DNA from: a virus
Lineage: Duplodnaviria; Heunggongvirae; Uroviricota; Caudoviricetes
Length of the DNA stretch: 56,409 nucleotides
Virus record (IMG/VR): IMGVR_UViG_2617270940_000006
Strand: one strand, 5' to 3'
Below, one piece after another: positions 37,092-46,353 of the stretch. The stretch's first letter is position 1, and each line of letters opens with the position of its first letter. Both the position numbers and the translations under genes were made by a program. Under the pieces are notes generated by a model. It was given only the letters and a program-made list of their open reading frames with translations, searched no databases and had not been told where the DNA came from.

Positions 37092-37283
37092 ATGAAGAAA
37101 GGTTTACTGGCGGTGGCTTTGGCTGCTATTTGCACAATGGGTCTGACCGGCTGCGATCGCGTGGAACCGGGATACGTTGGCATTAAGGTAAACAAATTGG
37201 GTGAAGACAAAGGTATCGGTGAAGTTGTCGGCGTTGGCCGTCAGTGGACTGGTCTGAATACCGAGCTGTACACCTCTCTTTAA
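37092..37283 (+). pseudogene. Lipoprotein gene truncated at an IS remnant
   Basis: Lipobox LTGC; the sequence after it resembles the start of an SPFH/band-7 domain (EPGYVGIKV). The last codons and stop are supplied by IS-derived sequence. Confidence 0.4.
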
Positions 37284-37357
37284 GTCATCTTAAATGACTC
37301 TGAGGTGTCTGTTAAACCTGTGGCGATTCAGTCTATTAAACCTGTAGCGATTCACTT
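37262..37357 (-). mobile_element. IS3-family left-end remnant (inverted), with an extra 25-bp terminal-repeat copy
   Basis: The reverse complement of 37262-37331 matches 15641-15699; 37332-37357 repeats the terminal 25 bp. Confidence 0.7.
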
Positions 37358-37515
37358 TATGGTGTCATAAACTTAAATCTAGCGCCGGGTAGAACAAGTT
37401 AATCGAACGATGTAGCGGCCATTTAGGCGTTACAGAAAGAACAGAATTTTAAATTTATAGTGAAGCCGTTGCAGCAACTTTGTGGGGTGCAACCAACACT
37501 GAACAGGAAAAGAAA

Positions 37516-39945
37516 ATGGATCATAGTGTACATAACAAGCTCATCTCATTTATTTGGAACATTGCCGACGACTGTTTACGTGATGTGTACGTTCGCGGTA
37601 AGTACCGCGATGTGATTTTACCTATGGTGGTATTACGACGTTTAGATACGTTACTTGAACCCACCAAAGAAGCCGTGCTTGAAGAGGTCAAGTTCCAAAA
37701 AGAAGAGATGCAAGCCACGGAGCTTGATGATGAACCATTGAAGGCGGCTAGTGGTTATGTTTTTTACAATACATCTAAATGGACCCTGAAATCCCTGTTC
37801 AACACCGCAACGAATAACCAACAGATATTACTCGCCAACTTTGAAGAGTACCTGCTTGGCTTTAGCGATAATGTTAAAGAAATCATTGAATGCTTTAACC
37901 TCAAGTTGCAAATTCGTCACATGGCCTCAAAGCAAGTCCTTCTTGATGTCGTCGAAAAGTTTGTTTCCCCTTACATCAACTTAACTCATGAAACGGTCGA
38001 AGACCCAGATGGCAACAAGATGCCAGCCCTTACTAACCTGGGTATGGGGTACGTGTTCGAAGAGTTGATCCGTAAGTTCAACGAGGAGAATAACGAAGAA
38101 GCCGGTGAGCACTTTACACCTAGGGAAGTGATTGAGCTGATGACACACTTGGTTTTTGACCCAGTGAAAGAGCAGCTACCATTGACCATGACCGTTTACG
38201 ACCCTGCGTGTGGTAGCGGTGGTATGCTCACTGAATCTCAAAACTTCATTGAAGAGAAATACCCGAACGACAGCCGAGATATTTACCTTTACGGCAAAGA
38301 GATCAATGACGAGACCTACGCGATTTGTAAATCGGACATGATGATCAAAGGTAACAACCCTGAGAACATCAAGGTAGGCTCAACCTTGTCTACCGACGAG
38401 TTTGCGGCTTCTCGCTTTGACTTTATGTTGTCTAACCCGCCATACGGTAAGAGTTGGGCGTCTGAACAGAAGTACATTAAAGACGGCAGTGATGTGATTG
38501 ACCCGCGTTTTAAGGTTAGCCTGAAAGACTATTGGGGAAATCTCGAAGTGGTGGATGCCACGCCACGTTCGAGTGATGGCCAGCTGCTTTTCTTAATGGA
38601 GATGGTCAACAAGATGAAAGATCCGAGCGTAAGTCCATTAGGCAGCCGGATTGCCTCTGTTCATAACGGCTCATCGCTCTTTACCGGTGATGCGGGCAGT
38701 GGCGAAAGTAATATTCGTCGCTTCATCATTGAAAACGACATGCTAGATGCCATCGTTCAGTTACCTAATAACCTGTTCTATAACACTGGCATTACCACTT
38801 ACATTTGGGTGTTGAACAACAATAAACCTGAGGCGCGTAAAGGTAAGGTGCAATTAATTGATGCCAGCTTGCTCTACCGTAAGTTGCGCAAGAACTTAGG
38901 TAACAAAAACTGCGAATTTGCGCCTGAGCACATCACGGAAATTACCGATACTTACCTCGCGTGTAAGGATGTTGAAAGAGCACTGGATGCAAACAATGAT
39001 CCTGTTGGCATCGCCAGTAAGGTATTCAGCAATGACGATTTTGGCTACTACAAAGTCACTATAGAGCGCCCAGATCGCCGCAAAGCCAAGTTTACTCAAG
39101 ACGCAATAGCCCCACTGCGTTTTGATAAGCAACTTAGTGAAGTGATGGAGTACGTGTACGCAGAGCACGGCGAACGTGTTTACGAAAAAACTGGCTACGG
39201 GTCAGCTCAGAAAAAGAGCTTCTTAAAATCCATCGAGAAAGACATTCTTTCTTGGTGTGAAGATAACGACATCAGTCTCAATGCTAAGGCTAAGGCCAAA
39301 CTGCTTGATGTGAAACACTGGCTGGCGCTAAAAGCATTGCTTGAAACTGCACAAACGCTGATGGCTGACATCGGTAGCATTGAATTTGATGACTTCAATA
39401 GCTTTAAAACCCAAGTTGATAAATCGCTAAAAGCCCATGCTATTAAGCTTTCAGCACCTGAGAAAAATGCCATTCTTCACGCGGTGAGCTGGTATGACGA
39501 AACCGCCAAGAAAGTGGTTAAAAAGGTAGTTAAATTAACGGGTGATAAATTAAACGACCTGCTGGAGCGCTATGAGTGTGAAGTCGCTGACTTGCCAGAT
39601 TTTGGTTATTACCCCGTTCCTTCAGCAGAAGGCGGTAAAAAAGGCGAGTATATCACTTACGAGACCAATTCAGACCTGCGAGATACAGAATCTGTTCCAT
39701 TAAAGCAAAGCATTTACCAGTACTTCCTAGATGAAGTGAAGCCTCATGTCGATGAAGCATGGATAAACCTAGATACGGTAAAAATTGGCTATGAAATCAG
39801 CTTCAATAAGTATTTCTACCGTCATAAACCGCTGCGTAGTTTAGAAGAGGTCGCAACCGACATCATCAACCTAGAACAAAAAGCCGAAGGTCTCATTGCG
39901 CAGATATTGGGTGTTAAAGTGGCGGAAGCTCAGGGAGAAGCGTAA
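37516..39945 (+). CDS. hsdM: Type I restriction-modification methyltransferase subunit (HsdM), unusually long
   Basis: Motif I DPACGSGGML and motif IV NPPYG; about 810 aa from the ATG at 37516. Confidence 0.9.
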   Translation: MDHSVHNKLISFIWNIADDCLRDVYVRGKYRDVILPMVVLRRLDTLLEPTKEAVLEEVKFQKEEMQATELDDEPLKAASGYVFYNTSKWTLKSLFNTATNNQQILLANFEEYLLGFSDNVKEIIECFNLKLQIRHMASKQVLLDVVEKFVSPYINLTHETVEDPDGNKMPALTNLGMGYVFEELIRKFNEENNEEAGEHFTPREVIELMTHLVFDPVKEQLPLTMTVYDPACGSGGMLTESQNFIEEKYPNDSRDIYLYGKEINDETYAICKSDMMIKGNNPENIKVGSTLSTDEFAASRFDFMLSNPPYGKSWASEQKYIKDGSDVIDPRFKVSLKDYWGNLEVVDATPRSSDGQLLFLMEMVNKMKDPSVSPLGSRIASVHNGSSLFTGDAGSGESNIRRFIIENDMLDAIVQLPNNLFYNTGITTYIWVLNNNKPEARKGKVQLIDASLLYRKLRKNLGNKNCEFAPEHITEITDTYLACKDVERALDANNDPVGIASKVFSNDDFGYYKVTIERPDRRKAKFTQDAIAPLRFDKQLSEVMEYVYAEHGERVYEKTGYGSAQKKSFLKSIEKDILSWCEDNDISLNAKAKAKLLDVKHWLALKALLETAQTLMADIGSIEFDDFNSFKTQVDKSLKAHAIKLSAPEKNAILHAVSWYDETAKKVVKKVVKLTGDKLNDLLERYECEVADLPDFGYYPVPSAEGGKKGEYITYETNSDLRDTESVPLKQSIYQYFLDEVKPHVDEAWINLDTVKIGYEISFNKYFYRHKPLRSLEEVATDIINLEQKAEGLIAQILGVKVAEAQGEA

Positions 39946-45400: not shown

Positions 45401-45472
45401 AAGTTGTTCGCAGGAGATTCAGCATTTAAAGCCTCGTGGACGCAAAGTATGCAACGAATGGTGGGTAGGTAG
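42455..45472 (+). CDS. hsdR: Type I restriction-modification restriction subunit (HsdR)
   Basis: 1005 aa; helicase motifs including Walker A (AGSGKS) and a DEAH box (IIDEAHSS). Confidence 0.9.
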
Positions 45473-45486
45473 AAAGGAGTGATGGT

Positions 45487-46173
45487 TTGCTGAAGGCAGT
45501 CTCAGAGTTATTAGGTGGGTCACCAGGCCTGAAAGGACGTCAAATTGCCAAGGAGCTGGGGCTGGTCAGCTGTCAGCAGCCGACTCACCGGTATAAACGT
45601 GGTGGTCATGAACATGTTGCTATCCCTAACTACCTTGAACGGCAGTTCGCCGTGACCGAGCCAAATCAGGTGTGGTGCGTTGATGTGACCTATATCTGGA
45701 CGGGTAAGCGCTGGGCGTACCTCGCCGTTGTTCTCGACCTGTTCGCAAGAAAACCAGTGGGCTGGGCCATGTCGTTCTCGCCGGACAGCAAGCTCACCAT
45801 GAAATCGCTGGAAATGGCATGGGAAACCCGTGGTAAGCCCGGCGGGGTGATGTTCCACAGCGATCAGGGCAGTCATTATACGAGCAGGCAGTTCCGGCAG
45901 TTATTGTGGCGATACCAGATCAGGCAGAGTATGAGCCGGCGCGGAAACTGCTGGGATAACAGCCCAATGGAACGCTTCTTCAGGAGTCTGAAGAACGAAT
46001 GGATGCCGGTGGTGGGTTACGTAAGCTTCAGCGAGGCAGCTCACGCCATAACGGACTATATCGTTGGATATTACAGCGCACTAAGACCGCACGAATATAA
46101 CGGTGGATTACCCCCAAATGAATCGGAAAATCGATACTGGAAAAACTCTAACTCGGTGGCCAGTTTTTGTTGA
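45487..46173 (+). pseudogene. IS3-family transposase OrfB fragment (N-terminally truncated)
   Basis: Catalytic core with [10 protein letters not shown] and [11 protein letters not shown]; no OrfA or left end adjacent; no recognisable terminal repeat after the stop. Confidence 0.8.
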
Positions 46174-46353
46174 CCACTTCATCTACACTCGCGGCATTGG
46201 AAGCAAAGATATGGTCGTCTGGCACCTGATGCACATTGATAAGGCTATCAACCACACGCTGGAGAAGTTCTTTCCACCAGCCTGAACACAATGATTGTGC
46301 GCCTTATAGCGCCCATTAAGATAGATAAGTACTTACCAACAAGGAGAAAACAC

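Follow-up and report, generated by a model that had tools for sequence, protein, structure and literature searches.

Type I restriction-modification (RM) systems are built from M, S, and R subunits: the M2S1 complex methylates a bipartite site that is read by HsdS, and the R2M2S1 complex translocates and cuts unmethylated DNA. In the enzymes EcoKI (family IA) and EcoR124I (family IC), the M subunit contains the S-adenosylmethionine (SAM)-binding and NPPY motifs, the S subunit contains two recognition regions, and the R subunit contains a nuclease, a DEAH motor, and helical domains. The phage-plasmid P1 likewise has an RM system, EcoP1I, which is of type III and a long-standing part of the P1 genome. 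Here we describe a locus in the IMG/VR virus record IMGVR_UViG_2617270940_000006 (Caudoviricetes), a stretch of 56,409 nucleotides that is termed the window herein. Positions 37276 to 46181 of the window are almost certainly a horizontally acquired 8.9-kb defence island with an apparently complete type I RM system, carried in the backbone of an SSU5-like phage-plasmid.

RM systems among the SSU5-group (clade J) plasmids of Escherichia coli and Shigella have already been surveyed (bioRxiv 10.1101/2025.09.12.675607); the survey likewise deals with RM on phage-plasmids, but it does not give the anatomy of the junctions or the origin of the cassettes. Restriction systems in hotspot 5 of SXT/R391 elements, including type I hsdR, were reported to protect against phages (LeGault et al., bioRxiv 10.1101/2020.12.16.423150). 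The RefSeq annotation, too, already marks the SPFH gene as truncated and the IS3 transposase as incomplete at the edges of the island. New here are the base-level junctions, the origin in conjugative elements and a chromosomal island, the embedded nuclease gene with its exchange for GmrSD-like genes, and an alternative type III island. An earlier sequence-only reading of the window had proposed a type I RM island between remnants of IS3-family insertion sequences (ISs), acquired by a phage-plasmid by IS-mediated means; it overlooked the DUF4268 nuclease gene, the conjugative-element/chromosomal-island origin, and the type III island that occurs at the same breakpoint. The locus, although genuine, is a rather commonplace instance of a defence cassette being picked up by a mobile element, and it overturns no current view.

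Judged from its backbone genes, the window appears to derive from an SSU5-like phage-plasmid. The region from 34000 to 49000 is collinear with Salmonella phage SSU5 at 92.5% identity, with 89 to 98% nucleotide identity in the flanks on both sides of the island and with the SSU5 gene order (exonuclease, RecA, membrane protein, SPFH, and onward to RepA, the repA replicon included). In a local BLAST comparison with SSU5, this homology stops at 37275 and restarts at 46181/46182, so that the 8,906 bp from 37276 to 46181 stand in place of 1,471 bp of SSU5 backbone. The missing 1,471 bp comprise the 3' part of the SPFH gene, the NinX/DUF2591 gene, and the 5' part of the DUF7238 gene; the island thus replaces sequence across three genes and does not lie inside a single truncated one, as had been suggested. 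The genes next to the breakpoints are as follows.

36888 to 37088, plus strand: intact homologue of SSU5_061, a membrane protein of 66 aa (amino acids); tblastn, 100% over 66 aa
37092 to 37283, plus strand: truncated SPFH/Band-7 lipoprotein gene, consisting of native codons 1 to 61 (to 37274), two foreign codons, and a stop
46182 to 46285, plus strand: remnant of the DUF7238 gene (SSU5_064 homologue), last 34 codons and stop; tblastn, aa 103 to 136

The left gene corresponds to SSU5_062, a 276-aa protein with a Pfam Band_7 match (E = 4.5e-31), of which the window gene matches aa 1 to 61 (tblastn). The loss of the native 3' end of the lipoprotein gene at the junction, seen in the sequence-only reading, was thus borne out, and RefSeq labels the gene as an SPFH pseudogene that is incomplete at the C terminus. 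On the right, the backbone had been thought to resume at about 46320; it actually does so at 46182, in codon 103 of another gene, whose full-length SSU5 counterpart encodes 136 aa and has the Pfam DUF7238 match.

Several further observations mark the segment as foreign. An uninterrupted SPFH-NinX-DUF7238 site was found in 170 plasmids of PLSDB (from Salmonella, Yersinia pestis, Enterobacter, and others). The guanine-plus-cytosine (GC) content of the island is 44.4% (40.4% in hsdS), whereas backbone windows of 8.9 kb all have values from 48.5 to 51.8%, and GC at third codon positions is also lower in the island. Both comparisons that the sequence-only reading had proposed, that of related plasmids for an empty site and that of base composition (as GC content, overall and at third codon positions), therefore came out in favor of a foreign segment in a phage-plasmid backbone, and relatives with the same hsd genes, no IS remnants, and a full-length lipoprotein gene, which would have spoken against it, were not what was found. 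Rfam and tRNA scans detected no RNA inside the island.

The island is shared by a group of related plasmids. The region from 34000 to 49000 is 100% identical to E. coli plasmid pYUXYEH3934-1 (NZ_CP110979.1) and 98% identical to about 20 IncFIB, nonmobilizable plasmids of 106 to 116 kb from E. coli, E. fergusonii, and Shigella. The left junction was detected in 28 and the right junction in 34 PLSDB plasmids, and homology passes straight through both junctions in every island-bearing plasmid aligned; since at least 28 PLSDB plasmids have both junctions in common, a single acquisition is indicated. Variation among the sister plasmids within the island comprises both hsdS recognition regions, an exchange of genes in plasmid pLAO4, and deletion derivatives (plasmid loci L020 and L021 and the 52-kb records). 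Left of position 21464, the window matches other plasmids of the lineage and not NZ_CP110979.1, which has there a multidrug resistance region with IS26, fosA3, blaCTX-M-14, dfrA14/intI1, qnrS1, and tet(A); positions 1 to 21463 of the window hold ordinary lineage backbone and a fimbrial operon in its place. The same phage-plasmid lineage therefore takes up resistance cargo, too.

Inside the island, genes for the M, S, and R subunits lie together in one locus (37516 to 45472, by Pfam and PADLOC), and a fourth gene is placed between hsdS and hsdR.

37355 to 37515, plus strand: native upstream region of hsdM, aligning with Vibrio cholerae locus L014 from 6092, where it is preceded by a BrxR/WYL gene
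37516 to 39945, plus strand: intact hsdM, 809 aa; Pfam HsdM_N and N6_Mtase (E = 5.5e-60), PADLOC MTase_I (890 bits)
39945 to 41267, plus strand: intact hsdS, 440 aa; Pfam Methylase_S, PADLOC Specificity_I (E = 1e-109)
41277 to 42440, plus strand: gene of 387 aa with an N-terminal NucS-like PD-(D/E)xK domain (D63, E77, K79) and a C-terminal DUF4268 domain; Pfam, PADLOC, and fold search
42455 to 45472, plus strand: intact hsdR, 1,005 aa; Pfam HSDR_N, SWI2_SNF2, ResIII, and T1R_D3-like, PADLOC REase_I

The HsdM translation contains the SAM-binding motif DPACGSGG and the motif NPPYG, and the HsdR translation contains the PD-(D/E)xK nuclease motif IDMVLF...ELK, the Walker A motif GSGKS, and DEAH. 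HsdM, HsdS, the DUF4268 protein, and HsdR have lengths equal to those of their Vibrio homologues. Because of these motifs, the domain matches, and the Vibrio-equal lengths, the operon looks intact, and the proposal of an intact hsd locus bracketed by IS3-family remnants stood, the remnants being those of an element termed IS-X here on the left and of IS911 on the right. The system is nevertheless distant from the classical type I enzymes: HsdM has 809 aa versus about 520 to 530 aa in those systems, an additional nuclease gene separates hsdS and hsdR, and families IA and IC gave remote matches alone (EcoKI HsdM, E = 2e-9; EcoR124 HsdM, E = 1e-21). Similarity of HsdM and HsdR to solved structures is likewise remote (E values of 1e-9 to 1e-26), the closest solved relative of HsdR being EcoR124I HsdR (E = 4e-12). 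From the intact genes and motifs, restriction of incoming DNA is a reasonable inference: M2S1 would methylate the plasmid and the host chromosome, and R2M2S1 would cut unmethylated incoming DNA. In hsdS, the sister plasmids lose homology solely in the two target-recognition regions (approximately 40013 to 40442 and 40655 to 41174); the diversification of hsdS alleles on otherwise nearly identical plasmids suggests that there is selection on specificity.

The protein encoded between hsdS and hsdR matches Pfam DUF4268 (PF14088; E = 2.5e-39) and the PADLOC candidate defence family PDC-S11 (599.7 bits), with additional weak Pfam matches to PDDEXK_4 and NucS_C. Among 38 homologues with 30 to 59% identity, D63, K79, Q90, and Y94 are invariant and E77 is conserved in at least 90%. 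A sequence search of solved structures gave no match for this protein, and the fold search alone was informative: the AlphaFold (AF2) model has a predicted local distance difference test score (pLDDT) of 93, and the top Foldseek matches were the NucS/EndoMS structures 2vld and 5gke (E values of 1.6e-4 to 3e-4). DUF4268 is known to accompany GmrSD type IV enzymes (PMC4619093), and the DUF4268 proteins MdgA and MdgB were reported to be nucleases that act against phages in a modification-dependent way, with E77A abolishing MdgA activity (PMC12366544). As in MdgA/MdgB and in GmrSD-type enzymes, DUF4268 is here joined to a nuclease domain, and the conserved glutamate 77 fits the reported E77A mutant, a likeness drawn from the shared domain and the position of the residue. 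The fourth protein may thus be a type IV-like nuclease embedded in a type I operon and presumably specific for modified DNA, in which case it would act against phages that evade the type I enzyme through modification of their DNA. In plasmid pLAO4 (locus L010, 7643 to 11781; NZ_OP242218.1), the DUF4268 gene breaks off at the point corresponding to window position 41807, and a GmrSD-like pair, one DUF262 gene and one DUF262-HNH gene, stands in its place; hsdR also begins differently. The site between hsdS and hsdR may therefore be a slot whose content can be exchanged. From its setting in this locus, the uncharacterized DUF4268 nuclease can be given a testable role, namely, one against phages with modified DNA.

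The closest relatives of the cassette point beyond plasmids. A V. cholerae module (locus L014) is 94 to 96% identical at the nucleotide level from 37353, where homology to the Vibrio element begins, to about 45552, and has the order brxR-hsdM-hsdS-DUF4268-hsdR followed by a gene of 361 aa. It is placed between rumAB-like genes and a MobH relaxase gene, beside genes of a cyclic-oligonucleotide-based antiphage signaling system (CBASS), a layout that, judging by gene content, we take to be hotspot 5 of the SXT/R391 elements. The window shares the hsdM-hsdS-DUF4268-hsdR order with this putative SXT/R391 module, but brxR and the downstream genes are missing, the bounds are IS remnants, and the location is a phage-plasmid. 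The DUF4268 protein is 97 to 98% identical in Vibrio, Proteus, Providencia, Morganella, Alteromonas, Marinomonas, and others. We place the cassette in a pool of defence modules under BrxR control that occur in conjugative elements with a MobH relaxase, from Vibrio and its relatives, as the first part of a proposed history (below) whose likelihood we put at about even.

In E. coli, the core is 97 to 99% identical to modules in a chromosomal tRNA-Ile island. The 3' end of hsdR was found in 60 of 5,426 complete E. coli genomes (59 at 99% identity or more and one at 98.6%; 40 copies were chromosomal and 20 on plasmids). Three chromosomal copies were read. The sole full-length one among them is a complete module (L006) in the genomic island beside tRNA-Ile, between mug and rpoD; in the second (L007), hsdM is split by an ISVsa5 insertion; and the third (L003) has a truncated hsdS and lacks hsdR. 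On both sides, the chromosomal modules are flanked by IS911-related sequences. As separate observations, in all three the hsd module is immediately preceded by an IS911-like element into which a group II intron (ltrA) is inserted, and several sister plasmids have an ltrA intron within the island region, too.

The right boundary of the island is composed of a cut gene and a partial IS911, which meet at a short repeat.

45487 to 45552, plus strand: first ~22 codons of the gene following hsdR in the Vibrio element (361 aa there), cut; the 26-residue translation matches the start of the L014 product
45553 to 45565, no strand assigned: 13-nucleotide (nt) repeat GAGCTGGGGCTGG in a single copy, putative crossover point where a deletion joined two direct repeats; one copy is known from the 361-aa gene and one from nt 621 to 633 of IS911
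45553 to 46181, plus strand: 3' half of IS911, nt 621 to 1250, with the catalytic core of OrfB and the intact right terminal repeat; 98.6% identical to IS911 of phage Sf6, Pfam rve

The open reading frame from 45487 to 46173 had been taken for an internal OrfB fragment. It does contain an IS3-family piece, but this piece is not internal: it is the 3' half of IS911 with its terminal inverted repeat, which ends in CCACTTCA, and its right tip at 46181 touches the backbone. The first ~22 codons of the frame do not belong to OrfB either, since they are the start of the non-IS911 gene that follows hsdR in the Vibrio element. Because its left half and left repeat are absent, the IS911 piece is nonautonomous. 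The chromosomal module L006 has both 13-nt repeats; there, the fragment of the 361-aa gene runs 49 nt further and is followed by a precise IS911 left tip. The junction between the hsd genes and IS911 in the window would thus be a deletion between 13-nt direct repeats, of which L006 would represent the undeleted state, and L007 carries the same deletion junction as the plasmids. A BLAST match of L006 that reaches to 45565 had made it seem that L006 shares the window's junction; when the sequence was read, this reach proved to be the shared 13-nt repeat. Plasmid p1585m1_B (L020, 6023 to 7269; NZ_CP086388.1) shares this right junction but retains IS911 in full length; the left tip of the element meets hsdM exactly, at what corresponds to window position 38604, and the rest of the operon is deleted, an arrangement that looks like an IS911-mediated adjacent deletion. 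The only true junction of an IS end with the backbone is the IS911 right tip at 46181.

The left boundary is of a different kind.

37271 to 37275, no strand assigned: 5-bp microhomology CACCT, at the putative crossover of backbone and IS remnant; three-way comparison of the window, SSU5, and a full IS copy
37271 to 37330, minus strand: IS-X remnant A, nt 1 to 60, with the left terminal repeat and 5' untranslated region, cut 4 nt before the orfA ATG
37331 to 37354, minus strand: IS-X remnant B, nt 1 to 24 of a second copy; minus-strand sequence TGAATCGCTACAGGTTTAATAGAC

The inverted IS3-family left-end remnant described in the sequence-only reading is real, with its limits corrected from 37262-37357 to 37271-37354 and its content to two nested minus-strand pieces. 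The element is 1.3 kb long, and RefSeq gives every copy only as an "IS3 family transposase"; for want of a specific name there, it is therefore called IS-X here. Remnant A is 98% identical to a full-length copy in locus L004, and the same piece is present in about 2,000 of the 5,426 E. coli genomes. Copy A was inserted into the terminal repeat of copy B, and the tip of copy B meets the core, which resembles that of an integrative and conjugative element, precisely. The junction with the backbone lies within nt 56 to 60 of IS-X, and the tip of the IS faces the cargo, not the backbone. Of the left IS-X remnant, 48 nt are left in those chromosomal copies that were examined and 60 nt on the plasmid. 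On the chromosomes, the right tip of the ltrA-interrupted IS911-like element cuts the IS-X remnant at the equivalent of window position 37285. Elsewhere in the window, pieces of IS-X bracket a second region of low GC content (40 to 45%) at approximately 8.7 to 15.6 kb, which is a chaperone-usher fimbrial operon according to sister-plasmid annotation; nt 1252 to 1302 lie at 8655 to 8705, and nt 3 to 313 and 446 to 522 lie at 15641 to 16065, both on the plus strand.

A different island occupies the same locus in three other plasmids from E. coli and Citrobacter (L017, 4432 to 14000 of pEC21Z137-115K; L018; and L019). It encodes type III res and mod, a DUF4391 protein, an HKD/SNF2 helicase, and a truncated brxR. 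Its right breakpoint is identical (46182), and its left breakpoint lies at approximately 36910 to 36913, inside the SSU5_061 homologue. The shared breakpoint would be trivial if the last 335 bp of this island were the 5' part of the DUF7238 gene in a diverged form; no such similarity was seen by tblastn or in a three-frame translation, and the segment is the truncated brxR. This brxR is cut at the same position as in the chromosome of strain GPEC996 (L023), where the IS911 left tip abuts brxR, and the TGA between brxR and base 46182 of the plasmids corresponds to nt 1 to 3 of IS911 and is not brxR sequence. The GPEC996 locus is the same tRNA-Ile island as in L006 with the same right flank (IS911::IS30-IS66-GTPase), and the type III island replaces the hsd island there. 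At the left flank of the type III island lies an IS-X right end, of which 44 nt are present on the chromosome and the last 11 nt on the plasmid. Two different restriction islands are found at one backbone position, and it is these two that take turns next to a single chromosomal IS911.

Episomes are known to pick up chromosomal genes in this kind of setting: F docks by homology between IS copies, lambda likewise by homology, and both can leave imprecisely with chromosomal genes while leaving own genes behind, giving F-prime plasmids and lambda gal/bio phages. The same logic of docking and imprecise excision is proposed here, except that the episome is an SSU5-like phage-plasmid and the cargo is a restriction island. 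In the starting state, the cassette would have resided in the E. coli chromosomal tRNA-Ile island with an IS3-family element on its left and IS911 on its right. A phage-plasmid with its own IS911 at codon 102/103 of the DUF7238 gene would have been fused to the chromosome by homologous recombination between the two IS911 copies, forming a cointegrate. Imprecise excision at CACCT, between the left IS remnant and SPFH codon 61, would then have released a plasmid with the island but without the 1,471 bp that had separated IS911 from the SPFH crossover. A later deletion between the 13-nt direct repeats would have taken away the 5' half of IS911, and the hsdS recognition regions and the embedded nuclease gene would have been swapped by recombination with homologous loci. 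Capture would have taken place at least twice, once for each island, or the islands would have been exchanged later via shared flanks. The explanation as a whole, a foreign restriction island with an embedded nuclease gene together with its proposed capture, is one that we consider probable on balance; for the route by IS911 docking and imprecise excision, we regard the case as about even.

Among the other ways in which the island may have arrived, transposition is the one that the phrase IS-mediated acquisition most readily suggests, with the island entering as a composite or one-ended transposon via its IS ends. The IS3-family remnants on both sides and an IS911 right terminal repeat that meets the backbone to the base would fit, but the flanking elements are two different ISs, most plasmids have an IS911 from which the left half with the left repeat is gone, and the left boundary lies at nt 56 to 60 of IS-X, with the tip inward, and not at an IS end. 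Because 1,471 bp of the target are missing, no target duplication is possible, which also counts against it. We rejected such a transposon on the anatomy of the junctions and hold it to be very improbable; of the earlier claim, the association with ISs stands and the transposition does not. The main competitor is a double homologous exchange, in which a plasmid whose SPFH gene held a complete IS-X and whose DUF7238 gene held a complete IS911 would have acquired the island by two crossovers, with IS-X later eroded by deletion. It would account for the presence of both IS types beside the island on chromosomes and plasmid and is consistent with IS911 at the right junction, and IS-X, which also brackets the fimbrial operon, has been active in the lineage. 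However, it requires an independent second IS insertion on the plasmid that left no trace, an extra deletion that ended by chance at a microhomology in SPFH codon 61, and, to account for the type III island as well, one more IS-X insertion elsewhere in the backbone (~36913), and we consider it unlikely. Somewhat less probable still is the reverse direction, with the island assembled first on the phage-plasmid (for example, from a coresident conjugative element) and the chromosomal copies derived from it. The 60 nt of IS remnant on the plasmid versus 48 nt on the chromosomal loci favor this order, as does the derived 13-nt-repeat deletion junction in the chromosome of L007, but the right side of L006 is undeleted and more ancestral, the IS end beside the type III island is longer on the chromosome (44 nt) than on the plasmid (11 nt), and the chromosomal copies have no flanking plasmid backbone. 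Some observations also weigh against capture from the chromosome by docking and imprecise excision. Among complete RefSeq genomes, neither a precursor plasmid with a simple IS911 insertion and intact left-hand genes nor the reciprocal chromosomal product was found; the chromosomes examined, with 48 nt of the left IS-X remnant, are not direct donors of a plasmid that has 60 nt, and the same difference weakens the case for transfer from chromosome to plasmid of the type I island; and the TGA footprint of IS911 beside the type III island comprises 3 nt.

A further alternative concerns function: the operon may be present and yet form no working restriction barrier, either because it has been silent since brxR and the native promoter context were lost or because it acts mainly as a methylase or plasmid-stabilizing module. 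The upstream regulator of the Vibrio module, brxR, is missing from the window, and a simple consensus scan of the plus strand from 37276 to 37515 gave no promoter match, a result that is uninformative rather than negative; for these two reasons, expression of the hsd operon is left as a prediction. A promoter-like site farther upstream, at 36830 to 36858, might allow read-through into the operon. Derivatives with large deletions of the operon exist as well (L020 and the 52-kb records without hsdM). On the other hand, all four frames are full length with catalytic motifs, the frames are undisrupted in all of the island-bearing plasmids with annotation that was read, except for pLAO4 (DUF4268 gene truncated and replaced), and the diversified recognition regions of hsdS speak for selection on specificity, so that a nonworking operon appears rather improbable. 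The assignment to type I itself has to accommodate scores below the NCBIfam cutoffs for HsdM (107.5 bits versus 242.75 for TIGR00497) and HsdR (211.6 bits versus 284.55 for TIGR00348), and we identified no characterized member of this HsdM/HsdR lineage; the low scores mark a divergent lineage and do not argue against a type I architecture.

Since phage-plasmids travel both as plasmids and as virions, a restriction island on them can spread a defence specificity by infection, and it can shape which plasmids and phages, resistance plasmids included, establish themselves in the host. On the reading of docking and imprecise excision, the locus is a base-level example of cargo uptake by IS-supplied homology followed by imprecise excision rather than by transposition. 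A wider picture is more tentative, and we lean slightly against it: SSU5-like phage-plasmids might use a resident IS911 to dock on the tRNA-Ile island and exit in an F-prime-like manner, sampling alternative BrxR-type restriction islands (type I with the DUF4268 nuclease, or type III with DUF4391 and the SNF2 helicase) that would ultimately come from SXT/R391-like elements. They would then act as a virion-borne shuttle of defence cassettes among conjugative elements, chromosomal islands, and phages, with the slot between hsdS and hsdR exchangeable for type IV-like nucleases.

Three features outside the island were recorded in addition. The RecA gene (34455 to 36797) contains a 425-codon intein at 34647 to 35921 with a LAGLIDADG homing endonuclease (Pfam matches Intein_splicing, LAGLIDADG_3, and RecA), which is absent in SSU5 and from some sister plasmids. 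A tRNA-Lys (TTT) on the minus strand (3118 to 3198) was called by ARAGORN alone and scored below the Rfam threshold, and a tRNA-Asn (GTT) on the plus strand (20453 to 20526) was detected by both Rfam (76 bits) and ARAGORN.

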